In this document: positions 4,879 through 36,096 of the stretch, piece after piece | How positions within the stretch are numbered: the stretch's first letter is position 1 | Layout: each line of letters starts with the position of its first letter | DNA from: Gammaproteobacteria bacterium | GTDB lineage: Bacteria; Pseudomonadota; Gammaproteobacteria; SZUA-140 | Assembly: GCA_016716465.1 (NCBI GenBank) | Contig: JADJWH010000007.1 | Coordinates: forward strand, 143,427-207,426 | Direction of reading: 5' to 3' | Length of the DNA stretch: 64,000 bases | Position numbers and translations under genes: made by a program | The notes under the pieces: model-generated | Seen by the model: the letters and a program-made list of their open reading frames with translations, nothing else | Told to the model about the DNA's origin: nothing | Databases searched by the model: none

Positions 4879-4954
4879 TCGAGACCATCATGATGGGAAA
4901 TTATTCTGTAAAATCATATGATTGTCAGCCCGGCATCCTGGCTTGCGTGGGTGG

Positions 4955-5755: not shown

Positions 5756-5772
5756 ACTGCCCGGCCAATTTT

Positions 5773-6678: not shown

Positions 6679-6777
6679 CCGGTTCCGGCTAGGGATCTCC
6701 CTCGATATTGCGCTTGATCGATATATCCTCCGTACCATCCCGTTTCGCAGGACAACAGACTCATCAGGAGTGCATCA

Positions 6778-11074: not shown

Positions 11075-11616
11075 TATTCCGTGAGACGGAACTCGCTGGC
11101 GCCTTCATCATCGAGCCGGAGAAGATCGAGGATGACAGAGGATTTTTTGCGCGTAGCTGGTGCCGCAGGGAGTTTGGAGAGCATGGTCTAGAGACCGGCC
11201 TTGAGCAATGCAATATATCGTTCAACAAGATGAAGGGTACTCTTCGGGGGATGCATTATCAGATAGCCCCCCATGAAGAGGTGAAACTGGTCAGATGTAC
11301 ACGCGGGTCGATTTTCGATGTGATAATCGATCTGCGGCCTTCGTCCTCTACCTATGGGCGCCATTTCGGGCTTGTGCTTTCGGAGGATGAGAGAAACATG
11401 CTGTATATACCGGGTGGATTCGCGCACGGTTTTCAGACGCTGGTGGATTCGACGGAAGTGTTTTATCAGATGACCGAGTCATACCATCCGGAATCGGCGC
11501 GCGGCGTGCGATGGGATGATGCGGGATTTGATATCGAATGGCCACCTGCGGCGCCACGGTTGATTTCCGAGCGCGACAGAACCTGGCCTGACTTTACAGG
11601 TCATTCAGGGCGTTGA
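11071..11616 (+). CDS. Cupin-fold sugar nucleotide 3,5-epimerase (RmlC family)
   Basis: Motifs DDRGFF, RGMHYQ, KLVRC..G.IFDV.IDLR, YIP.GFAHGF. The ATGA start/stop overlap with the upstream gene suggests translational coupling. Confidence 0.8.
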   Translation: MIFRETELAGAFIIEPEKIEDDRGFFARSWCRREFGEHGLETGLEQCNISFNKMKGTLRGMHYQIAPHEEVKLVRCTRGSIFDVIIDLRPSSSTYGRHFGLVLSEDERNMLYIPGGFAHGFQTLVDSTEVFYQMTESYHPESARGVRWDDAGFDIEWPPAAPRLISERDRTWPDFTGHSGR

Positions 11617-11639
11617 TACAAAGCGAGAGTTCTATCACG

Positions 11640-12479
11640 ATGGCTAAGGAACAATCCGATAATATTCCCGTTCTGATCATCAAGCCGGACAGCGGCTGGA
11701 AGATGATCGACCTCGGCGAGATCATCAGGTACCGCGACCTGGCGTATAACCTGGTGTGGCGCGATATCACGGTTCAGCATGCCCAGACCGTCCTCGGGTT
11801 CATTTGGGCGATCATAACGCCGCTGGTCCAGATACTTATCTTCTCGATAATCTTCGGCAAGGTGGCCAAGATCAGCACGGACGGGATACCGTATACGCTG
11901 TTTACGACCGTTGCGATCATCCCGTGGACATATATGTCCACGGTCATGCTTCAGTCCAGTCAAAGCCTGATTTCGAACCATAACATGCTGGGTAAGATTT
12001 ACTTCCCGCGTCTGCTCTATCCGTTAACACCGGTCATTTCGAAAATGTTGAATTTCGGGATATCGCTGTTGCTACTGTTGGCGATCATGGTGTACTACAA
12101 GGTCGCGCCCACCTGGCAGTTGCTCTATTTGCCCCTATTCATCCTGATGATGATGATGGTTCCGGCGGGTATCGGCATGTGGATGTCCGCGATGGCGATA
12201 CGTTACCGCGACATAAAATTCATCATGCACTATGTTGTCCAGATGCTCATGTACAGCGCTCCGATCGTATATTCGGCGGCATCGATCCCGGAGAATTACC
12301 GGTTTGTATATTCATTGAATCCCATTGTGGGAGTGATCGAGGGGTATAGAGCCTGTCTCCTCGGCGCCGATATGCCCTGGCAATTCATACTGCCCGGCAT
12401 GTTCACGGCCGTTCTACTGTTCGTTGGGGGCGCCTTTTACTTCAAGCGTATCGAGCGGATATTTGTCGATGTTATGTAA
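11640..12479 (+). CDS. wzm: ABC-2 type polysaccharide export permease
   Basis: Six predicted TM helices, about 280 aa, ABC-2 signature region, directly upstream of the ATPase. Confidence 0.8.
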   Translation: MAKEQSDNIPVLIIKPDSGWKMIDLGEIIRYRDLAYNLVWRDITVQHAQTVLGFIWAIITPLVQILIFSIIFGKVAKISTDGIPYTLFTTVAIIPWTYMSTVMLQSSQSLISNHNMLGKIYFPRLLYPLTPVISKMLNFGISLLLLLAIMVYYKVAPTWQLLYLPLFILMMMMVPAGIGMWMSAMAIRYRDIKFIMHYVVQMLMYSAPIVYSAASIPENYRFVYSLNPIVGVIEGYRACLLGADMPWQFILPGMFTAVLLFVGGAFYFKRIERIFVDVM

Positions 12480-12509
12480 TGTATTCCGCTGCAGCAGAGT
12501 TGACACATC

Positions 12510-13871
12510 ATGCCTATGAACTCAGAAGAGATCGCTATCAGGGTCGAGAAAGTCGCCAAGCGGTTCCGTCTTGGCCTGGAAGACGCCATGCACGATACCT
12601 TCGGGGCGGCCATGCTCGATTTCATCAAAAGCCCCCTCAAGAACTATCGATACTATCGTTCGCTTCATAAATTCGACGACTCCGCCGGCCCGGACGATCC
12701 GTCGAGCGAGCCGTCGGATATCCTGTGGGCGCTCAGAAGCGTTTCATTCGAGGTCAAACGCGGGGAGGTCCTGGGGATAATCGGCACCAACGGCGCTGGC
12801 AAATCCACCCTGCTCAAAATCCTGTCGCGAATCACCCCGCCCACACGCGGCTCGATCGAAATCAGAGGCCGGGTATCCAGCCTGCTCGAGGTCGGCACCG
12901 GTTTCCATAATGAGCTGACGGGCAGGGAAAATATCTATCTCAATGGCACCGTTCTGGGGATGAGAAAGAAGGAAATTGACCGGAAATTCGATGAAATCGT
13001 CGAGTTCTCCGGCGTCGAGCGTTTCCTTGATACTCCGGTGAAGCGCTATTCCAGCGGCATGCGCGTCCGCCTGGCTTTTTCGGTGGCAGCCCATCTGGAG
13101 CCCGAGATCCTGATCATTGATGAGGTGCTGGCGGTGGGTGACGCGGCATTTCAGAAGAAATGCATGAACAAGATGCAGGATGTCGGCGAAGGCGGCCGCA
13201 CGGTTCTCTTCGTCTCCCACAGCATGCCCGCGATCACCCGATTGTGCCATCGAGCGATACTGCTGAATCAGGGTACCGTGCTGAAGGATGGTTTGACGCA
13301 TGACGTGGTGAGCGCCTATCTGGGATCTGGCCAGGGATCGCCATCACACAAACAATGGGACGATCCGGGCACGGCACCCGCAGGTAAAGTGGCGCGGTTG
13401 CTTGCCGTGCGAGCCCTGGATGCCGACCGCAAAATATCGAGCGCGATGAAGATTACTCAGCCGATCGCGATCGAGATTGAATTTGAGGTGATCGAGCCGG
13501 GATATATCCTGATGCCACATTTTCATGTCTTCAATGACGAAGGCGTGCGCCTGTTCGCGGCCTTGGACCAGGATCCGCAGTGGCGCGGAAAACAGCGCCC
13601 GAAAGGCCGCTATATTTGCCGTGGCTGGATTCCGGCGAACCTGCTGTCTGAGGGCTTGCTGTATGTGTCTCCCGCGCTAACGACACTGCAACCGGATATA
13701 CCGCAATTCATTGCCCGGGACGCCATCTCGTTCCAGGTAATGGACAGCCGGCATGAAGGCGCGGAGTCGGCGCGAGGGGACTATGCGAGGAATATCAAAG
13801 GGGTCATCAGACCGATGTTGAGCTGGGAGTCCGAAATCGTGGAGATACCAGGGCGGCGCTCAACCGCTTGA
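12510..13871 (+). CDS. wzt: ABC transporter ATP-binding protein with C-terminal polysaccharide-terminus-binding domain
   Basis: Walker A GTNGAGKST, signature YSSGMRVRL, Walker B ILIIDEV. About 190-aa C-terminal extension consistent with the Wzt_C beta-sandwich. Confidence 0.85.
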   Translation: MPMNSEEIAIRVEKVAKRFRLGLEDAMHDTFGAAMLDFIKSPLKNYRYYRSLHKFDDSAGPDDPSSEPSDILWALRSVSFEVKRGEVLGIIGTNGAGKSTLLKILSRITPPTRGSIEIRGRVSSLLEVGTGFHNELTGRENIYLNGTVLGMRKKEIDRKFDEIVEFSGVERFLDTPVKRYSSGMRVRLAFSVAAHLEPEILIIDEVLAVGDAAFQKKCMNKMQDVGEGGRTVLFVSHSMPAITRLCHRAILLNQGTVLKDGLTHDVVSAYLGSGQGSPSHKQWDDPGTAPAGKVARLLAVRALDADRKISSAMKITQPIAIEIEFEVIEPGYILMPHFHVFNDEGVRLFAALDQDPQWRGKQRPKGRYICRGWIPANLLSEGLLYVSPALTTLQPDIPQFIARDAISFQVMDSRHEGAESARGDYARNIKGVIRPMLSWESEIVEIPGRRSTA

Positions 13872-16060: not shown

Positions 16061-16870
16061 GTGAAGCCCAGTAATCTGCTCGGGATTCTCGGCCATGCCG
16101 CGCCGGATTTTTTCATCATCGGGGTCCAGAAAGGCGGCACCACTTCGCTCTACAATTATCTCGCCCGTCATCCAGCGGTGCTTCCGGCGGTGGAAAAGGA
16201 GATTCACTATTTCAGTGAAAATTTCTATAGAGGCGAAGCGTGGTACAGCAAGCGCTTTCCGACCCGATACCACAAGCTGCGCCGCATGCTGGAGTTGCAT
16301 ACGCGTATCCTGACCGGAGAGGCAACCCCGTATTACATCTTCCATCCCCATGCCGCCCGACGGATCAGGGCGCGTCATCCACGCGCCAGGATCATCCTCA
16401 TGCTGCGCAATCCCGTCGATCGCGCCTATTCGCACTATCGTTATCACGTCAAGCTGGGTGTCGAGTCGCTGAGTTTCGAGGAGGCGATAGCCGCGGAGCC
16501 ACAGCGGCTGGCCGGGGAAATGGAGCGGATGATGGCCGATGAGTACTACTCCAGCGAAGCGTGCAAACTGTTTTCTTACCTGAGGCGCGGGATCTATGTC
16601 GACCAGATCCGGCGCTGGCGCGAATATTTTCCTCGCGAGCAGATGCTGGTCCTGAAAAGCGAGGATTTTTTTGCCAACCCGGCGGAGTCTTATCTGCAGG
16701 TCACCCGGTTTCTGGGCCTGGAGCACCATGATCTTAGCGCTTATGACACGTTCAATGCGGGCGCTGAATCGGCCCTGCGGTCTGACACACGGCAGGGGCT
16801 CGTGGAATATTTCCGGGCGAGTAACGAGCAGCTCTACGACTATCTGGGAGTCGATTTCGGCTGGAATTGA
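16061..16870 (+). CDS. Sulfotransferase (Sulfotransfer_1, heparan-sulfate-sulfotransferase-like PAPS-binding motifs)
   Basis: 5'-PSB loop IIGVQKGGTTSL, very similar to the animal HS sulfotransferase motif IIGV(R/K)KGGTRAL. 3'-PB motif RNPVDRAYSHY. GTG start. Confidence 0.8.
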   Translation: MKPSNLLGILGHAAPDFFIIGVQKGGTTSLYNYLARHPAVLPAVEKEIHYFSENFYRGEAWYSKRFPTRYHKLRRMLELHTRILTGEATPYYIFHPHAARRIRARHPRARIILMLRNPVDRAYSHYRYHVKLGVESLSFEEAIAAEPQRLAGEMERMMADEYYSSEACKLFSYLRRGIYVDQIRRWREYFPREQMLVLKSEDFFANPAESYLQVTRFLGLEHHDLSAYDTFNAGAESALRSDTRQGLVEYFRASNEQLYDYLGVDFGWN

Positions 16871-16893: not shown

Positions 16894-19800
16894 TTGGTGC
16901 CATTGATTGGCGGATATAGCTCAGTAAGCATGAATTTTCTCCCGCTCGTCGCCCGAGGTTTCAGCCAGGCCGTCCTGCTGGCCGCCCTCACGCTGTTACC
17001 GTTGACGATCCCCCCCGCGGCGGCGGCCGCGAATGCGCGTGCCGATTTCAACGGCGACGGGCGCACTGACCTGGCGATCGGTGTTCCGGGCGAGGATGTC
17101 GGGAGCATCATCGATGCCGGCGCCGTACGGATCGTTTATGGAAGCGGCAGTGGGGCGCCGGCGGCGGGTACAGAACAGATCTGGCATCTGGACAGCGTCG
17201 GTATACCGGGTACGGCGCAGTCGGGCGATCATTTCGGTGCGGCCATCGCCAGCGGGGATTTCAACCGGGACGGTTATACCGACCTCGCGGTGGGTATGCC
17301 GAACAAGAACGGCAATCGAGGCCAGATGCTGGTCATGTACGGCAGCGGCGCGGGTCTCAGCGCGGCCGGCAGCCAGATCTGGGATCAGGGGGTGCTCGCC
17401 GATGACCCGGAAACAGACGACCGCTTTGCATCCGCGCTCGTGGCGGGGGACTTCAACCGGGACGGATACGACGACCTCGCCGTCGGGGTTCCCGGGGAGG
17501 ATTATCCCGGCATCGGGCCACCTGAAGCCAACCCGCCGACTCCCAATTGCGATCCCTGCGTCAATGCCGGTGTGGTCAATGTGGTTTACGGCGGCCCCAG
17601 CGGCCTGACGGCCACGCGGAACGAGCTTTGGCACCAGGATCGCGGCGTTTCCTACGACGGCTGGGTTGAGCCACAGGACTGCTTCGGTGCAAGCCTGGCT
17701 TCCGCGGATTTCAATGGCGACGGCATAGATGATCTTGCCGTTGGCGTGCCGTGCGAGAACACCGGCGGCGCGGACGTGCCATTTCCGAACAACGGCGCGG
17801 TGAGCGTGTACTACGGTTCGACCGGCGGTCTGACGGGTGTCGGAGCGCAATACCTGCGGCAGTGGGCGGAAGACGTCGTCGATTATCCCCAGGCCAATGA
17901 TGCCTTCGGTTATGCCCTCGCGGCGGGAGATTTCGATGGTGACGGCCGCGCCGATCTGGCGATAGGCGTGCCGGGCGAGGATAGCGGCGGTATCAGCGAT
18001 GCCGGTGGCGTGGCGGTCTTTTACGGGGCTGCCGGCGGCCTGATCAGAAACGAGCTGTGGGGGACACACAGTCCGGATGTCATCGGCGACCCGGTCGCCA
18101 ATGCGCACTGGGGTTATGCGCTCGCCGCGGGAGATTTCAACCATGACGGGCGAGCTGATCTTGCGATCGGGGCACCCGGTGATAGCGTTTCGGCCATTAT
18201 CGAGGCCGGGTCCGTAAGCATACTTTACGGTGCCCCCACCGGACTGAGCGGCCAGTCCAGCCAACTGTTCACCCAGGATACCCCCGGCGTAGACGAGGTT
18301 GCCGAGCAGGTTGACTGGTTTGGACATACGCTCGCCGCTACCGATCTCGACGGCGATGGCGCTCAGGACCTCGTCATAGGCGTGCCATTCGAAGACTACG
18401 GATTCACCGTGGATGCGGGGGCCGTTCATCTCCTCTATGGCTCGGCAGGTACGGGGATTTCAGCAACCGGGAGCCGATTACTCGGTCAGGATGGACCAGG
18501 CAGCCAGGACATCAGCGAGGCAGGGGATCAATTCGGTGGTCGTCTGGTTCCGCGCCTCAACGGCGCGGCGCCCTGGCCGGATGAACCGACGAACTACATG
18601 ATGACGGCGCCGACCGCGGTGAATCTCACCGCGGAGGGTTCGGCGGACTGGGTTCATTGGGGCCGCGCCAGCGTAACAGCGCCGGATCGAAAATCCGGTG
18701 TTGCCCCCCAGATTGGCAACCTGTTTCCTCTGGGCGGGGCGAGTCCCGCGATCACGAACCAGACGAGCTCTGCCTATGCCTGGAGCGACGGCGCGCCACT
18801 CGCGACCCATTCCGGCACCAAATCCGGCGTTCGGGTGTTCAGCGCCGGCAATGGCTTCCAGTTCAGTGTGCCTGCAGATACGGGCTTCCGGACCCTCAAG
18901 GTCTATGTGGGAGCGAATGCCGCAAGAGGCCAATTTACCGCCAGTCTGAGTGATGGCAGTGCTCCGGCGTACACCACCGCGGTCGATCGCCGCAGTGGAC
19001 GCACCAGTCAGGTCATCACACTCAACTACCGCGCGGCATCGCCCGGCCAGACCCTGACCGTCAGCTACGTTTTGAACACGCTCTACCAGGCCAATCTCCA
19101 AAGCTGGATAACCCTCGAGTCGGCGGCACTGCGTGTTGCCGGGGATGATCGCCCGCCGATGCTTGAGCCGATCGGAAATCGAACCTTGCAGGAAGGCGAA
19201 CTGCTGAGTCTGGCCGTGGTCGCAGTGGATTCCGATGGTCCGGCCCCGCTGAGCCTGAGCCAGACCAATACGCTGCCCGGCAGCCCGAACATCCTGACCG
19301 ACAATGGCAACGGCAGCGGCACGCTGAACTGGACGCCGGCCGCGGGCTCCGCGGCCGGCAGCCCCTATTCGGTCACCGTCACGGCCACCGACGGCGCCGG
19401 GACCTCCTCGAGCACCAGCTTCACCGTGACCGTTCTCCCGGTCAGCTCGCACACGCCTTACGGCGGGAGCGCGTGGCCGATCCCGGGGATCATCGAGGCG
19501 GAGAACTACGACCTGGGCGGCTCAGGCGTGGGCTATTTCGACACCACGGCGGGCAACGCCGGCAATCTCTACCGCAGCGACGGCGTCGACATCTGGGTCG
19601 CCTCCGACGTGGATGGCGCCTACATGGTGGGCCAGACCAGCGCCGGCGAGTGGCTGGACTACACAGTCAACGTGGCAGCCGCCGGCAGCTACACGCTCAA
19701 TCTGCGGGTGGCGACGGCGGTGAACAACAAACGGCTGCGTATCCTGATGAACGGCGCCGACATCACCGGCTCGATCGCGGTGCCCAATACCGGCGGCTGG

Positions 19801-20694
19801 ACCGCCTGGACCACCCTCAGCCGGACGGTGACGCTCAATGCCGGCCAGCAGACCCTGCGCCTGCAGGTCGACAGCGGCAGCTTCAACGTCAACTGGATCG
19901 GTTTCACCTCCGGTTTCTCCAATGCCGCGCCCACCCTGAGCCCAATCGGCAATCAGACGGTGAATGAAGGGCAATTACTTGTCGTGCCGGTCTCGGCCAC
20001 TGACGCCGACGGTCCAGCCCCGCTGAGCCTGAGCCAGACCAGTACGCTGCCCGGCAGCCCGAACATCCTGACCGACAATGGCAACGGCAGCGGCACGCTG
20101 AACTGGACGCCGGCCGCGGGCTCCGCGGCCGGCAGCCCCTATTCGGTCACCGTCACGGCCACCGACGGCGCCGGGACCTCCTCGAGCACCAGCTTCACCG
20201 TGACCGTTCTCCCGGTCAGCTCGCACACGCCTTACGGCGGGAGCGCGTGGCCGATCCCGGGGATCATCGAGGCGGAGAACTACGACCTGGGCGGCTCAGG
20301 CGTGGGCTATTTCGACACCACGGCGGGCAACGCCGGCAATCTCTACCGCAGCGACGGCGTCGACATCTGGGTCGCCTCCGACGTGGATGGCGCCTACATG
20401 GTGGGCCAGACCAGCGCCGGCGAGTGGCTGGACTACACAGTCAACGTGGCAGCCGCCGGCAGCTACACGCTCAATCTGCGGGTGGCGACGGCGGTGAACA
20501 ACAAACGGCTGCGTATCCTGATGAACGGCGCCGACATCACCGGCTCGATCGCGGTGCCCAATACCGGCGGCTGGACCGCCTGGACCACCCTCAGCCGGAC
20601 GGTGACGCTCAATGCCGGCCAGCAGACCCTGCGCCTGCAGGTCGACAGCGGCAGCTTCAACGTCAACTGGATCGGTTTTTCGGGCATTAACTAG
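16894..20694 (+). CDS. Secreted FG-GAP (integrin-alpha-like beta-propeller) protein with two cadherin-like Ig modules and two CBM6 carbohydrate-binding modules
   Basis: Signal peptide (the start could instead be ATG 16930, MNFLPLVARGF...). At least seven FG-GAP repeats (DFNGDGRTDLAIGVPGED-type). Ig modules (PIGNQT..EG..L...V.A.D.DGPAPL.LSQT). CBM6 modules (PYGGSAWPIPGIIEAENYDLGG...NTGGW..W.T....V.LNAGQQTLRLQVD.GSFNVNWIGF). Confidence 0.8.
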   Translation: MVPLIGGYSSVSMNFLPLVARGFSQAVLLAALTLLPLTIPPAAAAANARADFNGDGRTDLAIGVPGEDVGSIIDAGAVRIVYGSGSGAPAAGTEQIWHLDSVGIPGTAQSGDHFGAAIASGDFNRDGYTDLAVGMPNKNGNRGQMLVMYGSGAGLSAAGSQIWDQGVLADDPETDDRFASALVAGDFNRDGYDDLAVGVPGEDYPGIGPPEANPPTPNCDPCVNAGVVNVVYGGPSGLTATRNELWHQDRGVSYDGWVEPQDCFGASLASADFNGDGIDDLAVGVPCENTGGADVPFPNNGAVSVYYGSTGGLTGVGAQYLRQWAEDVVDYPQANDAFGYALAAGDFDGDGRADLAIGVPGEDSGGISDAGGVAVFYGAAGGLIRNELWGTHSPDVIGDPVANAHWGYALAAGDFNHDGRADLAIGAPGDSVSAIIEAGSVSILYGAPTGLSGQSSQLFTQDTPGVDEVAEQVDWFGHTLAATDLDGDGAQDLVIGVPFEDYGFTVDAGAVHLLYGSAGTGISATGSRLLGQDGPGSQDISEAGDQFGGRLVPRLNGAAPWPDEPTNYMMTAPTAVNLTAEGSADWVHWGRASVTAPDRKSGVAPQIGNLFPLGGASPAITNQTSSAYAWSDGAPLATHSGTKSGVRVFSAGNGFQFSVPADTGFRTLKVYVGANAARGQFTASLSDGSAPAYTTAVDRRSGRTSQVITLNYRAASPGQTLTVSYVLNTLYQANLQSWITLESAALRVAGDDRPPMLEPIGNRTLQEGELLSLAVVAVDSDGPAPLSLSQTNTLPGSPNILTDNGNGSGTLNWTPAAGSAAGSPYSVTVTATDGAGTSSSTSFTVTVLPVSSHTPYGGSAWPIPGIIEAENYDLGGSGVGYFDTTAGNAGNLYRSDGVDIWVASDVDGAYMVGQTSAGEWLDYTVNVAAAGSYTLNLRVATAVNNKRLRILMNGADITGSIAVPNTGGWTAWTTLSRTVTLNAGQQTLRLQVDSGSFNVNWIGFTSGFSNAAPTLSPIGNQTVNEGQLLVVPVSATDADGPAPLSLSQTSTLPGSPNILTDNGNGSGTLNWTPAAGSAAGSPYSVTVTATDGAGTSSSTSFTVTVLPVSSHTPYGGSAWPIPGIIEAENYDLGGSGVGYFDTTAGNAGNLYRSDGVDIWVASDVDGAYMVGQTSAGEWLDYTVNVAAAGSYTLNLRVATAVNNKRLRILMNGADITGSIAVPNTGGWTAWTTLSRTVTLNAGQQTLRLQVDSGSFNVNWIGFSGIN
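19237..20678 (+). repeat. Direct tandem duplication with a 774-bp period inside the FG-GAP/CBM6 gene; 636 bp are perfectly identical (19269-19904 equals 20043-20678)
   Basis: Aligned by eye at offset 774. Two mismatches in the first 32 bp, then no differences to the end of the CBM6 module. Each unit encodes a partial Ig module plus a full CBM6. Confidence 0.9.
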
Positions 20695-20847
20695 CTCAAC
20701 TGGATTCAAATCCCCGGAATTTTGCCCGATACTCTCTGCATAGACACAGCCTCAAGAGCGCGTCAATTCCGTGGACAGCACCGGGTTTGGGTCGCGATAG
20801 CTTCGTTGGGGCAGGATCATTTTCGATAATTTAGCGGGACAATCGTG

Positions 20848-21789
20848 ATGTCGACCAATGAGCAGCGGCTGATCTTTCTGGGCGGGGCCCCCCGGTCGGG
20901 AACAACCTTGTTACAGAACATCCTCGATATGCATCCGGATATCCTGGGTGGTCCGGAGTTTCTGCATTTGCCGGATATCCTGCAACTTCGCGGCAAGCTG
21001 CGCGACTCCGTTGCCCGCGGATGGATCGATCTGATCTGCTCAGCGGAGGAGGTCGATGAACGCATGCGTAATCTCATTGGCGGATTTCTGTTGACCTTCG
21101 CCGACAGGCACGGCGCCAAATTGCTCAGCGAGAAGACACCCGAGAATGTCCTGGTCTTTCCCAAATTGGTGGAGTTGTTTCCGGGTTCGAAGTTCATTCA
21201 CATCGTGCGCGATCCACGCGCAACCGTGGCTTCTTTGCTGGAAGTTGGGAAAAAGGCCCGGCGTAAAGGTGAAACCCCGGCGTTGTTCACACGTGACGCA
21301 CAGTCCGCGATCAGGCATGTGCGACGCTGCCTGGATTCCGGCTTTTCGGCCTCCCGTACCGCGCCGGACAAGGTGTATACGCTGGTTTATGAACGATTGA
21401 TCCGGGACCCGGAGGCCGAGGGACGCCAGATCTGCGGTTTCCTCGGTGTGTCATGGGCGCCGGAGATGTTACGGCCCGGCGAGAAGCGCCACATGGGTGA
21501 GAGCGCCATTACCGTCAACTCAAAAGAGATCTGGTATGACGCCAAAACGTACAACTCCAATCCTCAACCGGACAGCCTGGAGAAATGGCGCGAAACGCTG
21601 GCGGCGCACGAAAAGCTGATGATTGCGCGCGCGTTCTCCGATTCAGAGGATTTGAGCCGGCTGGGGTACGATTTCACGCTCAGCGATATGGGGACGATGG
21701 ATCGCGCGCGCGGCGCCGTGGTAACGTGGCTGCGGGGGCTCCGTCGCCGGCTCGGCGGCGGGCTGCGCCGGCTTGCCGGAGATAAATGA
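20848..21789 (+). CDS. Sulfotransferase family protein (Sulfotransfer_3-like)
   Basis: 5'-PSB P-loop LGGAPRSGTTLL near the N-terminus. IVRDPRATVAS 3'-PB-like motif. Confidence 0.8.
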   Translation: MSTNEQRLIFLGGAPRSGTTLLQNILDMHPDILGGPEFLHLPDILQLRGKLRDSVARGWIDLICSAEEVDERMRNLIGGFLLTFADRHGAKLLSEKTPENVLVFPKLVELFPGSKFIHIVRDPRATVASLLEVGKKARRKGETPALFTRDAQSAIRHVRRCLDSGFSASRTAPDKVYTLVYERLIRDPEAEGRQICGFLGVSWAPEMLRPGEKRHMGESAITVNSKEIWYDAKTYNSNPQPDSLEKWRETLAAHEKLMIARAFSDSEDLSRLGYDFTLSDMGTMDRARGAVVTWLRGLRRRLGGGLRRLAGDK

Positions 21790-22242: not shown

Positions 22243-25200
22243 TCAATTCTTGACCACGATCGCAATGTAATTTGCCGCGGCACCGGTCGCCGCGGCGTTG
22301 GCGCCTCCTAGGAGGATGGTCCCCGACGCATTGTCCTTGCGATAGAGCTTCATCTGCGGCGTGGACGGGTTGCTGGTGTAGATCCGCAATCCGGAATCCA
22401 CGAATCCGGAGGATAGCCAGGAGGGCAGCGTGGCGGCATTGGCATCATACGCCACGTACAGCGTCGCGGGCGCCGGAATGTTGAACGACAGGTAATCGCT
22501 GTTGGCGGCGTTCTTGTCCAGATTGCCGGTCAGTATCCAGCGCCCATGCGCGAGCGCCGCCGGAATCGGGCTGTTGATCGTGTAGGTTTGATCGACATAG
22601 TACGGATCGCCGGGCTCCATCAGGTTTTCTTTGTAGGGAAGCGGGCTTGCGCACGAGCCGCCCTGGGACAAGCGCAGGCACAGGGCGCTGGCGACGAATG
22701 GCGGCGTCGAGTTTCCGGTCAGCGCGTTGGCGATCAGGCGCGCCATGACCTCGTAGCCGAGCGCGTTCGGATGAAGGTTGGTGGCGTACAGGTAGAATTT
22801 GTTCTCGCTGCCGAGGAAATAATCGTACAGATTCGCCCCCAATTGTCGGTCCGTGAGCTCATTGGCGATCACGGCATTGTATCCGTCACGAATCAGCAGA
22901 TTGCGTGCATGATTCGCCGGATCCGCATAGGGCGCCTGGAATGGATCGCCGAACCGGGGCGGCGCCCGGTTGACGACGACGGTTTTTCCCGCGGCGGTGA
23001 GCTGGTTGATAGTTGCCTGCAGATTACCCTTGAAGGTGCCGTTGCACTGGCTGCCGTTGCAGCCGAGGCCACTCGGTGTGAAGAGCGTTCCATTGGCGTC
23101 GTTGACGCCGATGGTTACGATGAATCTGTTGGAATCCGGATAGCCCTCGAGCACCGAGGCGAGCCTGTCGTTCAGCAAGTTGGCCGACGTGTCGCCGGGG
23201 ACGCCGGCGTTGTTCACGAGCGACGGATAGGGTTGTTGCGAGTTGAGCAAATCGGTCAGGGCGGCTTCATAACCCTGTGAGGAGATCACCCAGCCGCCCT
23301 GCGAAATACCGTCGCTGGAAGTGCTGTCGTCCAGCCCGTTGGTGATACTGTCGCCGAACGCCACATGGTTATCGCCACCGGAGCTTATGGAGGTATTGGT
23401 GTCGCTGTCCAGCTGGACATTGAACTGATCGCGCAATACCGCGCTCAATTGATAGACCCCCTGGGCCGGCGCGGTGCAGGAGGCGGTGAACAGGCCGGCA
23501 TGTCCCGTCTCGCTCGCGACGGTACAGGAGTTGAGCAGGCTGTTCAGCTGGAATTCGACCGTGGCTCCGGCGGGCTTGTTCATCACGACGGCGCCCACGT
23601 CGAACGTGGTGCCCGGAGAGACCGAGTAGGACACGGGCGCGGATATCGCGACGGCCGGAACCGTATCATTGTCCTGGATGTAAACATCGTCGAAGGCGCA
23701 CTGGTCGCGGCAGTAGAGTCCCACGGTGCCGCTGCTCAGGCTCGTGTCGTAAGCCCCGAACAGTTTCTCGCCGTTGACGCTGGCGATGACGACCGGTCCC
23801 TGGGCCTTCATGGTGACGTTCAGGGGCGTGCCGGTCAGATAGCCCCTGGCGTTTTTGGCCAGGGTATGGAAGGTGCCTCCGGCGCGGGTTTCGAGCCGTG
23901 CGAAGCCGTTCGCCGCGCTGTACGAGAGACGCGTATAGCTGTTGTCGTTGGGGTTGACGCGGATCATGACACCGATGTCCTGTCCCGAGGCCGCCGTCGG
24001 TAGAGCTTTGACGCTGAATGTGTAGTCGCCGAGCGTTATCCCTGGGACCAGATAGGAATAGGTGCCGCGATGGTATCCGCCCTGCAGGGCGCTTCCATTG
24101 AAGCCGACGAAGTTGTTCTGGCGGTATTCGCCGGCGGTCACGCCCCAATTCGGGTCTTGTCCGGAGTCATTGACGACCTGCCAGTTGGTGGCGAAGCCGC
24201 TGGAGAAATCCTCGGAGTAGGGAAGCGGCAACGCTCCGGCCGCCGTGAAGCTGATCCAGTTGACGTTGAAGCTGCCGTTGTCGATCTGGAGGCGCATCAC
24301 CTTCTGGCCCGCGCTGCCGATGTTGACCGGGATGCTGACGGTCTGCCAGGTGATCCAGCCGCCGGTATTCGGAATGGCGATCGGTCCGGCGATATCGTTG
24401 CCATTCATCAGTACGCGCGCCTGTTTGCCATTGGCCGCGGTCGCCACCCGCAGGTTCAACATGTAGGAGCCGGCGCTTTGCACCTCGACCGTGTATTCCA
24501 GCCACTCACCCGCCTTGGTCGAGCCCACCATATAGGCGCCGCTGACATCGGAAGCATTCCAGATGTCGACGTTGTCGCTCCGGTACAGATTGCCGTCGTT
24601 GCCGACGGTGGCATCCTGGTAAGCGATACCGGGCCCACCGAGGTCGTAGTTCTCCGCCTCTATGACCCCGGGGATCGGCCAGGGCGTGCCGCCATAGGGG
24701 GGCTGCGTGCTGGAAATGACTGTGACCTTGAAGCTCGCGCTGGAGAAGGCGCCGTCGCCATCGGTGGCCGTGACGGTGACCGAGTAGGGACTGCCGGCGG
24801 CCGCGCCCGTGGACGGCGTCCAGTTCAGCGTGCCGGTACCGTTGCCGTTGTCGGTCAGGATGAAGGGGTTGCCGGGCAGGGTGTTGGTCTGGCTCAGGGT
24901 CAGGGGCGCCGGGCCGTCGGTGTCGGAGGCCGAGACCGGCACGACGAGCGGCTGGCCTTCAGTTACGACCTGATTTCCGATGGGACTCAGGGTCGGTGGC
25001 AGGTTGTCGGTCACCGTGACTGTGAAGATCATGCTGGAGAAATGGCCGGCGCCGTCGGTGGCGGTAACGGTGATTGAATAGGGACTCCCGGCGGAGGAGC
25101 CAGCGGGAGGCGTCCAGTCGATGAACCCGTTGCCGCTGCCATAGTCCGTCAGGATGTTCGGGTTGCCGGGCAGGGTGTTGGTCTGGCTCAGGGTCAGGGG

Positions 25201-28200
25201 CGCCGGGCCATCCGTATCAGACGCGGTGACCACCAGGCCCAGCGACTGCCCCTCAGAGATCGCCTGGTTGCCGATCGGACTCAGTACGGGCGCCTGATTC
25301 CCAGCGACCGAAATGGTGAAGCTGGTGCTCGAGGAGGCCCCGGCACCATCGGTGGCCGTGACGGTAACGGAATAAGGGCTGCCGGAGGAGTCCCCTGTTG
25401 CGGGCGTCCAGTTCAGCGTGCCGGTGCCGTTGCCGTTGTCGGTCAGGATATTCGGACTGCCGGGCAGGGTGTTGGTCTGGCTCAGGGTCAGGGGCGCCGG
25501 GCCGTCGGTGTCGGAGGCCGAGACCGGCACGACGAGCGGCTGGCCCTCGGTCACGGTCTGATTGCCGATCGGATTCAGGGTCGGTGGGGCATTGGAGGAC
25601 CCGTCCGAGGTGAAACTGATCCAGTTGACGTTGAAGCTGCCGTTGTCGACCTGCAGGCGCAGGGTCTGCTGTCCGGCATTGAGCGTCACCGTCTTGCTGA
25701 TCGTCTGCCAGGTGGTCCAGCCCCCGGTGTTGGGCACCGTGATCGGACCGGTGATGTCGGCCCCGTTCATCAGAAAGCGCAGCCGCTTGCCGTTCGCCGC
25801 CGTCGCTACCCGCAGATTGAGCGTGTAGCTCCCGGCGGCCGCCACGTTGACCGTGTATCGCATCCATTCGCCTGTGCTGGTCTGGCCCACCATATAGGTG
25901 CCACCGGTGTCACCGGAATTCCAGATGTCGATATCGTCGCTGCGGTACAGGTTGCCGGCATTGCCCGCTGTGGTATCGAAATAGCCCACGTCCGAGCCGC
26001 CCAGATCGTAGTTCTCCGCCTCGATGAGGCCAGGGATCGGCCAGGGGAATCCGCCGTAGGGCGCCTGTCCGTTGGTTTGTATGGTGAACGTCCGACTGAT
26101 GACGGCGCTGTTGTTGTATCCGGTCCGTATCGCGATGGCCTTGACTGTGGTGGTAGCCGTCAAGGTGAATGGCGCCGTGTACAGCGTGGAGGTGGCGTTC
26201 GGCGTACTGCCATCCGTGGTGTAATGGATCGCTGCCCCCGGCGTGGTGCTGGAGAGTTGCACATCGACCGAGTTCTGGAACGTGCCTCCGTCCGGCACGA
26301 AGGCGGGTTCCGCGACGGCCGGCGCGCCGGCCTGCGAGTCGAACACCAGGTAGGCGACCTGCTCGGCTGAGAGATGCGAGCGTTCCACATCCAACTTCTG
26401 GTCTTCGTCGATCGCCACGGCGAGCTGGCTGGGCGAGACGGCGCCGGGTCCGTACTGTACCACCCAGCCGCCGTTGGTCCCTTTCATCCCGGCCTGGCTG
26501 ACGATGGCTATCTCAGGCTGGGTCAGGCCGCTGATCGGGATATTGAATGGCGGGCTGTCCTCGATCCCCTGCGCCACGGCGGAACTGAGTCCGGCCAGCG
26601 CCGTATCTCCATCGAGCGTGCTGATTCCCGCGTTCATGACCACATAGCCGAGCGTTTCCGCGCTGCGGGTCTTGTCGGGGTCTTCGCCGACGTGTTTGCC
26701 TATATAGAGGGTGTTGGTGTTGGGTGGATTCTGCGCCGAGCTGCCACGGCTCCAGAAGGTGGAGAAGTCGGCATCGTTATACGACATGACCTGTCCCAGC
26801 ACGACCGGTTGGGCGTACGAATTGGCGTAGGGCCGTTGCGTACCCACCCAGCTCGACGCATTGTCCGTCCGGTTTGTCCTCAGGCGCAGCGCCTCCAGGT
26901 CCACGCCGTGATGGGCCTGGTTATACACTCCCGCTTCGACCACCAGGTACTGGACGGTGGCCGGCGTGATCGCCGTGCCCGAGTTGTCGGCCCGCTCCAG
27001 CCGGATGTCGAAGCTGGCATGATCGACGGTGAGGTCATCGGCGTTGCGGATCCGGGTGACCACCGGTGGCATGGCGGCATCGGGATATTGCACACTGGTC
27101 AGTACGATTGGCGCGCGATAGGGATGACTCAGATTGATCGTGCGCCAGGCGCCGTCGACGTTGTTGAGTACCCCGCGCTCCAGGTCCAGCGGAGGCTGCC
27201 ACGGCACCAGACTTTCTTCCGCCTTGTAACCATTCAGTACCGCCATCAGTTCGGTGACCTTGGTCGGGTTGGAAGCGGCGAGATTCTGCGTCTCGTAGGG
27301 GTCACTGGCAAGGTTGTACAGTTCGAAGGTGCCGCCGGGCGCGTTCTGCACCAGTTTCCAGTCCTGTCTCCGCACCGCATAATGCGTCTTCCAGAGCGTG
27401 TCGGTGAAGGTGGAGCGGTTCTCGAAGAAAAGATCACGCGCGGGATACTGCGGGCTTTGTCCAAGCAATGTCGGCAGTATGGATCTGCCCTCGATCGGAT
27501 GTTGGATGGTAACGCCCGCGGCCTCGGCGATCGTTGCGTAGAGGTCCATGGTCAAGGCGATTTCCGCGCTTTGGGTGCCGGGCTGGATCCTGCCTGGCCA
27601 CACCGCTGCCATGGGTACGCGGAGGCCGCCCTCGTAGAAATCGAGTTTTCCACCCCGATACGGGCCATTATTGGCGTTATGCAGCAGGTACCCGCCGTTG
27701 TCGGACGTATAAATAATGAGCGTATTGTCGTAGATGCCGTTGTCTTTCAACTCCTGCACGACTTGACCGATGCTGTCGTCGAGGTGTTCGATGAGCGCGA
27801 CAAGCTTCGCCCGCTCGGGGTCAATGCCGGGTTCACGCGCCAGTACCTGATTCAGATAGGATTGCGGCGGCTGCACCGGGTCGTGAGGCGCACTGAAGGC
27901 CAGATACATCATGAACGGCTGGGATGAGCCCGCTCGTTCCTGGATGTAGTCCTTCGCCCATTGAGTCAGCAGGTCGGTCGTATGGATGCCCTGCAGTGAC
28001 GCCGGATCGAGCACCGTGTCATTGAGCATCAGCAGGTTGTCGCCCGGCCATCCATAGCTGGATCCGTCATGTGTGTAATAATCGCCCGCGGCCCCGATGA
28101 ATCCGTGAAAATGGTCGAAACCCCGGTGCGTCGGCAGGTTGTGCGGATCCCCACCCAGGTAGTCACCCAGGTGCCATTTACCAATCAGACCGGTGGTATA

Positions 28201-29373
28201 GCCGGCGGATTTGAGCAATTCCGGCAGGGTGGGGCCCGTGGGGGAAAAGTACCCCATGTTGGTGACCGGGTCGCGGGCCACGGTACCGGGTACGCCCACC
28301 AGCGCGGGATAACGCCCCGTCATCAGCGCGGCCCGGGTGGGGGAACAGACACTGCTGTTGGCGTAAAAATTATTGAAACGCATGCCATGCGCGGCGAGGT
28401 CGTCGAGATTCGGCGTCTCCAGGTCGGCCGCGAGCCCGGTGTAGGCAACGTCGCCATACCCCTGATCGTCGGTGAGGATTACGACGATATTGGGCGGTGG
28501 GGCGGACTGTATCGTCACCGCGAAGCTCAGGCTGGAAAACGCGCCGGCGCCATCGGTCGCGGTGACGGTAACCGAATAAGGGCTGCCCGCGGCGCTGCCC
28601 GCGGGGGGCGTCCAGTTCAGCGTGCCGCTACCATTGCCGTTGTCGGTCAGGATGTTCGGGTTGCCAGGCAGGGTGTTGGTCTGGGTCAGCGTGAGTGGGG
28701 CGGGACCGTCGCTGTCGGAGGCTGTAAAAGGGAGATTCCAGGATATCCCCTCGGTGACCATCTGGGTACCGATGGGGTTTATCACAGGAGCGGCATTGTT
28801 GGCGGTAAAGCTGATCCAGTTGATGTTGAGGCTGCCGACGTCGATCTGCAGCCGCATCACATGTTGTCCGGCGCTCAGATTGACCGTTCTGCTGACGGTC
28901 TGCCAGGTGGTCCAGCCGCCGGTGTTGGGTATCGCGATGGGGCCGGTGATATCCACCCCATCCATCAGGACGCGCGCCTGTTTTCCGTTCACGGCGGTGG
29001 CCGTTCGCAGGTTCAGGACATAGCTGCCGGTAGCCGCGACGTTGACTGTGTATGCCAGCCACTCTCCGACTTTGGTCGAGCCGACCATGTAGGCGCCGCT
29101 GACGTCCGCGGAGTTCCAGATGTCGACGTTGTCGGTTCGGTAGAGCCCGCCCTCGTTGCCCGAAGTGGCGTCCTGGTAGCCGACACCGGAGCCACCCAGA
29201 TCGTAGTCTTCCGCCTCGATCAGCCCGGGTACGGCCCATGGGGTACCGCCAAAAGGCGTTTGCACGGCCTCCGCATGCGGAGACAGCCCAAGAACCAGAA
29301 AGAAGGTACTGAGAAGAAGGTACTGCTTGGTTAACCTAAGATGCACCCAGGCGTCCGGCGTTTTATTGAACAT
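22243..29373 (-). CDS. Giant secreted multi-modular polysaccharide-modifying protein: CBM6 - Ig - Cys-type sulfatase - unknown beta region - CHB_HEX_C-like - CBM6 - 3x Ig - CBM6 - ConA/LamG-like - SGNH/GDSL hydrolase - C-terminal domain
   Basis: Signal peptide. Sulfatase signature NIVVILTDDQGYGD...CSPTRAALMTGRYP, with the FGly Cys at codon 343 (28345-28347). GDSL block VAFGDSITNG (about 23341-23370). Three CBM6 modules matching the IEAE(N/D)YDLGG...NTGGW...NWISF consensus. Four PIGNQ...DGPAPLTLSQTNTLPG Ig modules. Confidence 0.85.
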   Translation of the reverse strand: MFNKTPDAWVHLRLTKQYLLLSTFFLVLGLSPHAEAVQTPFGGTPWAVPGLIEAEDYDLGGSGVGYQDATSGNEGGLYRTDNVDIWNSADVSGAYMVGSTKVGEWLAYTVNVAATGSYVLNLRTATAVNGKQARVLMDGVDITGPIAIPNTGGWTTWQTVSRTVNLSAGQHVMRLQIDVGSLNINWISFTANNAAPVINPIGTQMVTEGISWNLPFTASDSDGPAPLTLTQTNTLPGNPNILTDNGNGSGTLNWTPPAGSAAGSPYSVTVTATDGAGAFSSLSFAVTIQSAPPPNIVVILTDDQGYGDVAYTGLAADLETPNLDDLAAHGMRFNNFYANSSVCSPTRAALMTGRYPALVGVPGTVARDPVTNMGYFSPTGPTLPELLKSAGYTTGLIGKWHLGDYLGGDPHNLPTHRGFDHFHGFIGAAGDYYTHDGSSYGWPGDNLLMLNDTVLDPASLQGIHTTDLLTQWAKDYIQERAGSSQPFMMYLAFSAPHDPVQPPQSYLNQVLAREPGIDPERAKLVALIEHLDDSIGQVVQELKDNGIYDNTLIIYTSDNGGYLLHNANNGPYRGGKLDFYEGGLRVPMAAVWPGRIQPGTQSAEIALTMDLYATIAEAAGVTIQHPIEGRSILPTLLGQSPQYPARDLFFENRSTFTDTLWKTHYAVRRQDWKLVQNAPGGTFELYNLASDPYETQNLAASNPTKVTELMAVLNGYKAEESLVPWQPPLDLERGVLNNVDGAWRTINLSHPYRAPIVLTSVQYPDAAMPPVVTRIRNADDLTVDHASFDIRLERADNSGTAITPATVQYLVVEAGVYNQAHHGVDLEALRLRTNRTDNASSWVGTQRPYANSYAQPVVLGQVMSYNDADFSTFWSRGSSAQNPPNTNTLYIGKHVGEDPDKTRSAETLGYVVMNAGISTLDGDTALAGLSSAVAQGIEDSPPFNIPISGLTQPEIAIVSQAGMKGTNGGWVVQYGPGAVSPSQLAVAIDEDQKLDVERSHLSAEQVAYLVFDSQAGAPAVAEPAFVPDGGTFQNSVDVQLSSTTPGAAIHYTTDGSTPNATSTLYTAPFTLTATTTVKAIAIRTGYNNSAVISRTFTIQTNGQAPYGGFPWPIPGLIEAENYDLGGSDVGYFDTTAGNAGNLYRSDDIDIWNSGDTGGTYMVGQTSTGEWMRYTVNVAAAGSYTLNLRVATAANGKRLRFLMNGADITGPITVPNTGGWTTWQTISKTVTLNAGQQTLRLQVDNGSFNVNWISFTSDGSSNAPPTLNPIGNQTVTEGQPLVVPVSASDTDGPAPLTLSQTNTLPGSPNILTDNGNGTGTLNWTPATGDSSGSPYSVTVTATDGAGASSSTSFTISVAGNQAPVLSPIGNQAISEGQSLGLVVTASDTDGPAPLTLSQTNTLPGNPNILTDYGSGNGFIDWTPPAGSSAGSPYSITVTATDGAGHFSSMIFTVTVTDNLPPTLSPIGNQVVTEGQPLVVPVSASDTDGPAPLTLSQTNTLPGNPFILTDNGNGTGTLNWTPSTGAAAGSPYSVTVTATDGDGAFSSASFKVTVISSTQPPYGGTPWPIPGVIEAENYDLGGPGIAYQDATVGNDGNLYRSDNVDIWNASDVSGAYMVGSTKAGEWLEYTVEVQSAGSYMLNLRVATAANGKQARVLMNGNDIAGPIAIPNTGGWITWQTVSIPVNIGSAGQKVMRLQIDNGSFNVNWISFTAAGALPLPYSEDFSSGFATNWQVVNDSGQDPNWGVTAGEYRQNNFVGFNGSALQGGYHRGTYSYLVPGITLGDYTFSVKALPTAASGQDIGVMIRVNPNDNSYTRLSYSAANGFARLETRAGGTFHTLAKNARGYLTGTPLNVTMKAQGPVVIASVNGEKLFGAYDTSLSSGTVGLYCRDQCAFDDVYIQDNDTVPAVAISAPVSYSVSPGTTFDVGAVVMNKPAGATVEFQLNSLLNSCTVASETGHAGLFTASCTAPAQGVYQLSAVLRDQFNVQLDSDTNTSISSGGDNHVAFGDSITNGLDDSTSSDGISQGGWVISSQGYEAALTDLLNSQQPYPSLVNNAGVPGDTSANLLNDRLASVLEGYPDSNRFIVTIGVNDANGTLFTPSGLGCNGSQCNGTFKGNLQATINQLTAAGKTVVVNRAPPRFGDPFQAPYADPANHARNLLIRDGYNAVIANELTDRQLGANLYDYFLGSENKFYLYATNLHPNALGYEVMARLIANALTGNSTPPFVASALCLRLSQGGSCASPLPYKENLMEPGDPYYVDQTYTINSPIPAALAHGRWILTGNLDKNAANSDYLSFNIPAPATLYVAYDANAATLPSWLSSGFVDSGLRIYTSNPSTPQMKLYRKDNASGTILLGGANAAATGAAANYIAIVVKN
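22750..23375 (-). other. SGNH/GDSL esterase-like domain within the giant protein
   Basis: Block I GDSITNG, later GVND-like block (TIGVNDANG). D-x-x-H-like C-terminal block (NLHPNALGY). Confidence 0.6.
27214..28506 (-). other. Sulfatase catalytic domain within the giant protein (approximately aa 290-720)
   Basis: C-x-P-x-R formylglycine motif and the N-terminal metal-binding DDQGYGD block; KWHLG, YTSDNGG-type sulfatase blocks downstream. Confidence 0.8.
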
Positions 29374-29566: not shown

Positions 29567-31651
29567 TCAAGGGGGGCTGTCGCCGGTCTCTTCCCGGGCC
29601 CGGAGGACACGGTCTGCCTGGACATCATGGAGGGTTTGAACGGTACCACTGGGCCAATGGATCGTGATCTCATCCGCCTGGACATTCGCGCCCAGGCCGA
29701 AGTGGAGGCGGGGGAAATTTTGCGCGATCCGGTGCATGCCGCCAGTCTGTACCCGGGTCTGGGTTACCCCTCCGGCCGTCAGGCTGACGACAGCCCCGAT
29801 GCCGTCGCGGTTGGAGCGGACCCCCTCGAGGTCGATCTCGAGCCAGTGGTTTCCATTGCCGAGATTCCGGAACAGCTGGTGCGGTCCATCCGCCACGAAG
29901 GGCGAGGTCGGATCCATCCCGTTGGTGACGAACAGATCGAGGAAACCGTCGCGATCGTAGTCAGCCACGGCGACGATGTCGCCGCGTCCAAGCGGGCTTC
30001 CCGCCGCGCCGCCCGCGTCGGAGACCAGAGTGAAGTTTCCCTTGCCGTCATTTTCCAGCAAGCGGTTCGGCAGATTTTCGACGGCACCGGAGCAAACCAG
30101 ATACAAGTCGATATCCATGTCATTGTCGAAATCGCCGGCGGCGACGGAATGACAGGCGGTATCGGCGCCGGCCGCGCCGGATAGCTTGTGTCGGATATAT
30201 CCGCCTTCTCCGCGCATCAGCAGGGCGTCGATACCCTGTTCGCGAAAGGGCTCGAATCCTTCCTGCTTCAGCCCGGTGATGGGCGTGGATGAATTGATGA
30301 TGAGATCAACGAACAGTCCATTCGAGATATTGCTGAAAACCCAGTCGCCAGATTCGCGATCGAAGGTGATCGAGAAGCCGCCGTTGCGAACGACTTCCGC
30401 GGATGGGGCTCCGTTAACCGCGGGGTCATCGCTGGATAAGGAAAACGAGCGCGAATCGGGATGGATGCCTTGCGTCCCGATATAGACGGTCGAGAGGTCA
30501 ATGAACGCGGGGAAGATCCGTACATCCAGGTGTCCCGGCGCATGGAATCGAACAGTTCTGGCTGCTTCATCCTTATTGCTGGTCAGCGTCGCCTTGATCG
30601 AATCAGGAGCGGTCTGAATCACATCCGACAGCAACCATGGACCGATCGTCAGATAGATATCGGGTTTTCCATCATTGTCGAAATCCGCGATCGCCGCGTC
30701 GCTGATATTGTCGAGCGCGGGAAAGCCCATCATCGCGGTTTCATCGCTAAACGGGACGTCATCGATCGAGTAAACCCTGGTCGGCGATGACAACAGAACC
30801 AGAGAGGCTTCCTGATCGCTCAGTAAGTCGGAAAGCTGGGCGGATTCCAGGTGTTTGTGCATATTGACCAGGCTGATTCGTCCGAATTTGAACCGCAGCG
30901 CGTTGCGCGCCATCCCCAGGTAGTCATCACGGCGAGACCAGCGGTCATCGCGGAAGCCGAATATTTTGTTCGCTTTCTCGAAGGAGTGATCGTCCTTCTG
31001 GCGAAAAATCCAGGAAGGCGTGGTGCCGCCACCGAGCCGTGTATTGGCCACCACCAGGTCGAGTCTGCCGTCCCGGTCAGCGTCGAGCCAGAGCGGGGTG
31101 CGCGCGAATCCTGTCGCGGCGAGGCCATATTTTTTCGCGCTTTCGACCAGTTTTCCCCCCTCGTTCACGAACAGATGATTGAGGCCGCACCCGAAACAGA
31201 ATGTGCCATCGATGTTCTGCATCGCCCCGACGACCTCGACCATATCCTGGTCGCCATCGTTGTCGAAATCGGCCCAGGCCGCCCCGTGGGTATCGGCGTG
31301 GGGATTGGTCGACCATACCTGGTCGATCACGTTGGAGAAACCGCCGCCCTGAAGATTGAGATAGAGCGTGGGTTTGCTGTCATGGTTGCCGACCCAAAGG
31401 TCGGGCCAGCCGTCGCCATTGAAGTCTCCCCACGAGGCGCCATAGCTCTGTCCCGCATGATCGATGCCCATCCGCTGGCTGGCATCCTCGAACCGGATGG
31501 CCGCCGGAAGCGACTGAACCGTGACCAGGCATAGCAGGGCGGACAGACGCGCAAGCCGGTTGGCCACGAAAGCGGGGCGGAAATCGTTCATCGGCCGAAC
31601 TCCCATCGAGAGCCGCTTGCGCGATATGTTGAGCGTCGAATCCAGGGTCAT
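29567..31651 (-). CDS. CRTAC1-like secreted protein: FG-GAP/VCBS repeats + C-terminal ASPIC/UnbV domain
   Basis: Signal peptide. FG-GAP repeats (GASWGDFNGDGWPDLWV, GAAWADFDNDGDQDMV, LDADRDGRLDLVVAN). C-terminal NHWLEIDLEGVRSNRDGIGAVV...HFGLG.....ITIHWPSG ASPIC/UnbV signature. Confidence 0.8.
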   Translation of the reverse strand: MTLDSTLNISRKRLSMGVRPMNDFRPAFVANRLARLSALLCLVTVQSLPAAIRFEDASQRMGIDHAGQSYGASWGDFNGDGWPDLWVGNHDSKPTLYLNLQGGGFSNVIDQVWSTNPHADTHGAAWADFDNDGDQDMVEVVGAMQNIDGTFCFGCGLNHLFVNEGGKLVESAKKYGLAATGFARTPLWLDADRDGRLDLVVANTRLGGGTTPSWIFRQKDDHSFEKANKIFGFRDDRWSRRDDYLGMARNALRFKFGRISLVNMHKHLESAQLSDLLSDQEASLVLLSSPTRVYSIDDVPFSDETAMMGFPALDNISDAAIADFDNDGKPDIYLTIGPWLLSDVIQTAPDSIKATLTSNKDEAARTVRFHAPGHLDVRIFPAFIDLSTVYIGTQGIHPDSRSFSLSSDDPAVNGAPSAEVVRNGGFSITFDRESGDWVFSNISNGLFVDLIINSSTPITGLKQEGFEPFREQGIDALLMRGEGGYIRHKLSGAAGADTACHSVAAGDFDNDMDIDLYLVCSGAVENLPNRLLENDGKGNFTLVSDAGGAAGSPLGRGDIVAVADYDRDGFLDLFVTNGMDPTSPFVADGPHQLFRNLGNGNHWLEIDLEGVRSNRDGIGAVVSLTAGGVTQTRVQTGGMHRIAQNFPRLHFGLGANVQADEITIHWPSGTVQTLHDVQADRVLRAREETGDSPP

Positions 31652-36016: not shown

Positions 36017-36096
36017 CCGGGCCCGTGTAAACACACAGCCGCCCTCCGCACGTGGTCTGGCATGCTATCAGTGAAATAGCGGATAATGATATCTCA

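Follow-up and report, generated by a model that had tools for sequence, protein, structure and literature searches.

A stretch of 64 kb from a metagenome-assembled genome (MAG) of a gammaproteobacterium (GCA_016716465.1, contig JADJWH010000007.1, positions 143,427 to 207,426 of the forward strand) was analysed, and this whole stretch is referred to below as the window. The element under study was a long direct repeat inside a single gene, coding for a putatively secreted protein that combines FG-GAP repeats, immunoglobulin-like (Ig) modules and carbohydrate-binding modules of family 6 (CBM6). Both copies of the repeat were located within one open reading frame, which starts at 16894 (TTG) or 16930 (ATG) and whose stop codon ends at 20694. 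The encoded protein matched exactly the record titled 'MAG: FG-GAP repeat protein [Gammaproteobacteria bacterium]' (MBK9132723.1). Its parts were found in the order putative signal peptide, seven FG-GAP repeats, an unassigned middle domain and then Ig–CBM6–Ig–CBM6, as follows (positions of the window):

16930-20694, + strand: gene of the putatively secreted FG-GAP/Ig/CBM6 protein, 1254 amino acids (open reading frame; identical to NCBI MBK9132723.1)
17030-18546, + strand: seven FG-GAP repeats (Pfam FG-GAP, seven stretches, 209.9 bits)
18547-19149, + strand: middle domain of about 200 amino acids without family assignment, kept only in two syntenic orthologues
19150-19231, + strand: N-terminal third of Ig module a, 'Ig1 type' (36 of 82 nt differ from the counterpart in module b)
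19232-19268, + strand: left shoulder of copy 1, 37 nt (three mismatches against 20006-20042)
19269-19904, + strand: identical tract, copy 1, with the C-terminal two thirds of Ig a and CBM6 a (string comparison; CBM_6 in Pfam)
19905-20005, + strand: unique spacer, with the linker TSGFSN (19905-19922) and the N-terminal third of Ig b (alignment)
20006-20042, + strand: left shoulder of copy 2 (alignment to 19232-19268)
20043-20678, + strand: identical tract, copy 2, with the C-terminal two thirds of Ig b and CBM6 b (string comparison; Pfam)
20679-20694, + strand: C-terminal tail SGIN and stop codon (same tail in the orthologue L001)

The tracts 19269-19904 and 20043-20678 were identical at 636 of 636 positions by direct string comparison, a repeat search returned the same pair, and their offset of 774 nt corresponds to 258 codons, so that the repeat is in frame. 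The base-for-base identity over 636 bp at a 774-bp period that had been claimed in the original prediction was therefore recovered at the same coordinates, as were exactly two mismatches in the 32 bp preceding the repeat (19237-19268), which were placed at 19242 and 19268. A third mismatch at 19236 extended the near-identical block to 19232-19904 against 20006-20678, that is, 673 nt with three mismatches. To the left of this block, 19150-19231 and 19924-20005 were still homologous, although with 36 differences in 82 nt. The right edge of the identity was sharp at 19905/20679, copy 1 being followed there by the linker and copy 2 by the C-terminus SGIN*; this edge is the end of homology and hence uninformative about a conversion boundary. 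Each unit was found to code for the C-terminal two thirds of an Ig-like module (He_PIG/Big_9) plus a whole CBM6 module, and the Pfam domains agreed with the earlier description of an FG-GAP/CBM6 gene whose units each carry part of an Ig module and a full CBM6, leaving two identical CBM6 copies. In particular, CBM6 (PF03422) was matched in two stretches with 151.3 bits, above the curated cut-off of 28.9, and the module was related to the solved structures 8zvk (8e-42) and the CBM6 of CtXyl5A in 2y8k/5la0 (1e-32), with query residues 15-150 aligned. Tandem Repeats Finder reported nothing here because the 774-bp period exceeds its longest period of 500. Moreover, the other nine CBM6 modules in the window reached only 68-85% DNA identity to the studied CBM6, and by this comparison chance is of no concern as the origin of the identity.

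The neighbourhood of the identical tracts was then compared with related sequences. Two syntenic orthologues were found, both keeping a sulfotransferase–gene–sulfotransferase arrangement: L001 (GCA_020845975.1, JADLET010000132.1), with one Ig module, one CBM6 and the same SGIN tail, and L002 (ENA k141_602785), with three diverged Ig modules and one CBM6. The module counts thus differ between them, from which it follows that module-level recombination appears to recur in this gene, always in frame. Furthermore, a paralogue lies on the opposite strand downstream of the studied gene:

22243-29373, - strand: paralogue of 2376 amino acids with a sulfatase, CHB_HEX_C/Fn3_assoc, three CBM6, four Ig-like modules and a GDSL esterase (Pfam)
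25315-26063, - strand: CBM6-linker-Ig block of the paralogue, colinear with 19454-20199 at 83-85% identity

The 138-nt stretch between the identical tracts (19905-20042) had no twin either before copy 1 or after copy 2, where only the C-terminus and then intergenic DNA were found. The upstream counterpart of the spacer, the N-terminal third of Ig module a, showed only 56% nucleotide identity to it (IgN_a against IgN_b), with a non-synonymous divergence (dN) of 0.42 and a saturated synonymous divergence (dS), which dropped to zero over the next 37 nt. For the N-terminal third of Ig a, the nearest relative was the first Ig of L002 (70-76%), and no other Ig exceeded 60% identity to it, while the C-terminal part of Ig a was 99.5% identical to module b, 84% to Ig2 of the paralogue (the nearest outside the gene) and 67% to the C-terminal part of the first Ig of L002. 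Judged from these affinities, Ig module a is a chimera.

The junction between the two cassettes was found to be much older than the identity of the tracts. The end of CBM6 a, the linker TSGFSN and the start of Ig b aligned with the CBM6-2/linker/Ig2 junction of the paralogue (25612-25473) at 79%, with one 3-nt indel, and the spacer was likewise 79% identical to the Ig start of L001. Between the studied gene and the paralogue, dS was 0.38 for the CBM6 and 0.50 for the C-terminal part of the Ig. For comparison, dS between the window and the orthologue L001 was 1.27 for the propeller presumably formed by the FG-GAP repeats, 1.25 for the middle domain and 0.82 for the CBM6. Between the two copies of the identical tract, dS was 0, with a 95% upper bound of about 0.018. 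Thus the junction long predates the identity, as a dS of 0.38-0.50 stands against at most about 0.018 between the copies. By the same dS values, the CBM6-2/Ig2 block of the paralogue has exchanged sequence with the studied gene, and this exchange postdates the split from L001. Three time layers are read from these divergences: the N-terminal thirds of the Ig modules are ancient, the junction and the exchange with the paralogue are intermediate, and the identity of the tracts is essentially of the present day.

Two features expected under gene conversion were accordingly observed, namely an identical tract beside a homologous, old and diverged left flank, and a duplicated arrangement older than the identity. 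Since an old layout is combined with a recent identity, gene conversion is the simplest process, and we consider it somewhat probable, with no more than moderate confidence, that the two-cassette layout is old and that its identity arose by recent intragenic gene conversion. A tract of approximately 636-673 bp would have been copied by non-reciprocal recombination from one cassette onto the other, probably recurrently, its left end lying within the Ig module and its right end at the limit of homology. One protein chain would thereby come to bear two identical glycan-binding CBM6 modules, and the 636-bp direct repeat would itself be an in-frame substrate on which RecA-dependent recombination could delete or add one 258-codon cassette. 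An earlier tract of slightly greater length could account for the shoulder with three mismatches (19232-19268), which offers a thin hint of repeated homogenisation.

Several points weigh against this explanation. Conversion between copies as diverged as their flanks (about 56% identity) would be inefficient, so that the model requires the tract either to have been homogenised repeatedly or to have been kept from diverging at all. As the copies are identical, the donor is indistinguishable from the recipient. The three orthologues do not recover the exact ancestral architecture, and the closest relatives, with approximately 76-82% nucleotide identity across the locus, have a different module architecture. 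Moreover, the source is a MAG, in which a few true differences between the copies could have been lost in consensus building or short-read polishing, and in which the copy number itself could be wrong.

The original prediction had offered a very recent duplication or an ongoing gene conversion as explanations of the zero divergence, and it is the second that was better supported. A recent segmental duplication, by which some 640-670 bp holding the C-terminal part of the Ig and the CBM6 would have been inserted upstream into a pre-existing Ig module, would agree with the zero divergence across 636 nt and with the single CBM6 of L001 and L002, which makes the second CBM6 specific to the lineage of the window. 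However, a tandem duplication copies a contiguous unit, and the 138 nt between the tracts should therefore have a twin; the spacer is unique. The CBM6-linker-Ig junction, which matches that of the paralogue including the linker, is also far older (dS of 0.38-0.50) than the tract, so that a one-step route would need two breakpoints, one of them illegitimate, that happened to recreate an existing junction. A recent duplication was thus considered unlikely. Selection on the nucleotide sequence itself, such as an embedded RNA or a regulatory element holding the copies identical, was regarded as highly improbable, as the tract is ordinary coding sequence whose synonymous sites vary freely among orthologues (dS of 0.82 in the CBM6), and the open reading frames on the opposite strand are shadow frames as usual for G+C-rich coding DNA. 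Such a nucleotide-level functional element was, like a diversity-generating retroelement and a phase-variable inversion, considered and rejected, having no support in the sequence.

An artefact of assembly or polishing, under which the true copy number would differ or the copies would differ slightly, was judged rather unlikely, although the source being a MAG and the difficulty of short-read assemblers with long exact repeats speak for it. So does the lack of a second assembly of the gene in the protein, genome and metagenome collections searched: a protein search with the C-terminal 521 amino acids, a scan of species-representative genomes and a scan of JGI metagenomes returned nothing closer than the orthologues at 77-79%. 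On the other hand, the spacer is unique, in frame and codes for a well-formed Ig N-terminus with the conserved residues of the family, which implies that the sample contains molecules with the order CBM6→linker→Ig→CBM6, and the 226-kb contig passes through the repeat. In addition, of the four other homologues whose CBM6 modules reach at least 95% identity, three were assembled on contigs with names of the form 'contig_N', and a few mismatches between the copies are preserved in those. Given the unique spacer, it appears unlikely that the tandem layout was invented by the assembler. The 'contig_N' names are presumably of the Flye style, used for long-read assemblies. The accession range of MBK9132723.1 would fit the Danish activated-sludge MAG set obtained with Nanopore reads, a link that serves as a lead only. 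The pipeline of this set consisted of CANU, followed by Racon and medaka and then by Racon with Illumina reads (PMC8012365). The further claims of the original prediction, that the repeat is a substrate for changes in copy number and that the assembly might misstate this number, are both reasonable. A copy number read from an assembly at such a repeat is not to be trusted without long reads, and the length of the gene may vary among cells.

If the identity did arise by gene conversion, the locus offers a clean and datable case of module-level concerted evolution in a putatively secreted glycan-binding protein of an uncultured bacterium, and an example in which 'zero divergence' need not equal 'new duplication'. 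The tufA and tufB genes of Salmonella are the textbook case of concerted evolution by gene conversion. The studied gene resembles such cases in that paralogous sequences are identical over a tract that passes sharply into old divergence, but its partners are adjacent modules of one gene, directly oriented and separated by 138 bp, and therefore deletion or expansion competes with conversion.

The homologues were examined for comparable repeats. Among 240 retrieved homologues, 126 proteins carried CBM6, and 121 of these had at least two modules. The best pair of CBM6 within each of the 121 proteins had a median identity of 79% (amino acids), reaching at least 95% in five of them and 100% in two, with the studied protein in both sets; the three 'contig_N' homologues mentioned above come from one ENA project. 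Of 163 fetched loci (1.94 Mb), only one contained a comparable direct repeat with an identity of 99% or more, that of the distant homologue P0004/L003 (ENA ERZ25039514 contig_3966), in which a CHB_HEX_C–CBM6 cassette with a period of 726 bp is repeated approximately 3.3 times with three mismatches in total. Like the studied gene, it codes for an FG-GAP propeller followed by a C-terminal array of near-identical CBM6 cassettes, but its spacer module is CHB_HEX_C/Fn3_assoc rather than Ig, and it repeats the whole unit, the pattern expected of a true recent tandem amplification, with an integrase gene after the array. At this locus, the array (4291-6710) breaks off inside the fourth copy and the open reading frame ends in an unrelated tail of 27 residues; the integrase gene is of the phage type (7194-8366) and is accompanied by primase-like and HTH genes. 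The array therefore looks as if a mobile element had been inserted into or beside it. In two other loci, L164 (2320-3687) and L165 (1983-3803), both from 'contig_N' assemblies of the same project (ENA ERZ25039513/4), the first two CBM6 units were 97% identical in DNA to each other and 76-84% to the others.

The repeats of L003, L164 and L165 are independent parallels to the studied pair and speak for the proposed conversion. By these counts, near-identical CBM6 arrays recur in the family but are rare in assemblies, a rarity explained at least in part by the inability of short-read assemblers to represent such repeats. The skew towards 'contig_N' assemblies also suggests that they are under-represented in short-read assemblies. 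Regarding the orthologues, the three tandem Ig modules of L002 (12221-13093) were 55-74% identical in DNA, a diverged state that is missing from the gene of the window, and the single Ig of L001 showed an 'RPP' start of the Ig1 type and then continued as the b type, suggesting further recombination within the Ig modules.

Among the closest known systems were the 'Periscope Proteins' (SasG, Rib, alpha C, Esp and CdrA), surface proteins with highly identical tandem domain repeats, of which 1,576 were counted among 2.5 million proteins in a survey of long-read genomes, and for which the high identity of the repeats was proposed to enable intragenic recombination and changes in repeat number (PMC8201768). 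The studied gene shares with them whole folded domains in tandem at a very high DNA identity (100% over 636 nt), but it has two copies only, its repeated unit includes the binding module (CBM6) instead of being a passive stalk, and no anchor to the cell wall or outer membrane is evident. A stalk projecting a distal domain from an anchored end, which characterises those proteins, was not found in it. Furthermore, their hallmark is variation in length from strain to strain, while here the module count differs only between orthologues of different species, which is no more than suggestive. The protein also resembles proteins with several CBM6 per chain, such as AaBglC (8zvk, with two CBM6) and CtXyl5A (2y8k), which belong to the same CBM6 family. 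In such enzymes, the modules are usually attached to a recognised glycoside hydrolase and mutually diverged, whereas in the studied protein they are identical and partnered with an FG-GAP propeller, with no recognised catalytic domain. Overall, features of this type are common in modular secreted proteins, and this one is a real but fairly ordinary repeat, not a new kind of system.

The remaining parts of the protein were characterised in the same way. Its N-terminus, MNFLPLVARGFSQAVLLAALTLLPLTIPPAAAAANA, is taken for a Sec signal peptide, and no recognisable anchor or sorting motif was found in the sequence or by Pfam, the protein ending in SGIN. The seven FG-GAP repeats, with motifs of the DFNGDG type every ~200 nt, presumably form a seven-bladed beta-propeller with DxNxDG calcium-loop motifs; both the seven repeats and the calcium-loop motifs of the FG-GAP family were thus present. 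All modules were under purifying selection (dN/dS of 0.08-0.30), the propeller with a dN/dS of 0.08 between the window and L001. The middle domain (18547-19149) had no match in Pfam and none in the PDB by sequence search. Its mean column identity was 88% in the alignment of three sequences (window, L001 and L002), and the AlphaFold model built from this alignment was all-beta with a pLDDT (predicted local distance difference test) of 48, and hence not usable.

The gene is flanked on both sides by sulfotransferase genes (16061-16870 and 20845-21789). By Pfam, the gene content of the 64 kb includes a BBP2 beta-barrel porin (1828-3105), a Wzz-like protein (3190-4878) and an ABC transporter (11613-13871), together with a DUF4910/HTH_47 protein, an SDR protein, at least two sulfotransferases and at least five glycosyltransferases. 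Taken together, the genes read as an exopolysaccharide locus, rich in sulfotransferases, for the synthesis and modification of a polysaccharide. A total of 11 related CBM6 modules were spread over four genes of the window. Besides the studied gene and the paralogue, whose unusual fusion of sulfatase, CBM6, Ig and GDSL modules looks like an enzyme desulfating and deacylating a polysaccharide, two more putatively secreted proteins had modules of the same CBM6 subfamily, namely 43598-46324 (- strand, four modules) and 60362-62890 (- strand, two modules). The tandem CBM6 modules of these two proteins were 66-82% identical in DNA, and therefore only the studied pair has been homogenised.

It is well established that CBMs in tandem gain avidity, and the triplicate CBM6 of a Clostridium stercorarium xylanase reportedly binds cooperatively. 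A repetitive glycan should accordingly be bound with higher avidity by a pair of identical CBM6 modules on flexible Ig spacers than by a single one. The presence of sulfotransferases, glycosyltransferases and a sulfatase at the locus only suggests a carbohydrate as the ligand of the CBM6, and the same context suggests that it could be the own, probably sulfated, exopolysaccharide of the cell. The identical tracts would also make the number of the 258-codon cassette unstable. As a more speculative proposal, to which we give little credence, the 11 CBM6 modules of the four putatively secreted proteins could form a recombining pool, with exchange between inverted neighbours and homogenisation within genes, in which a number of identical CBM6 varying within the population would tune the avidity for the own sulfated polymer. 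Were this so, the system would be a glycan-binding analogue of the surface proteins of variable length.

Elsewhere in the window, two large open reading frames had no match in Pfam (50664-52016 and 55718-57232). Finally, three paralogous FG-GAP_3/UnbV_ASPIC proteins were found (29567-31651 and 31648-33801 on the - strand, and 36052-38154 on the + strand), the first two of which are adjacent and share blocks of 71-79% DNA identity.

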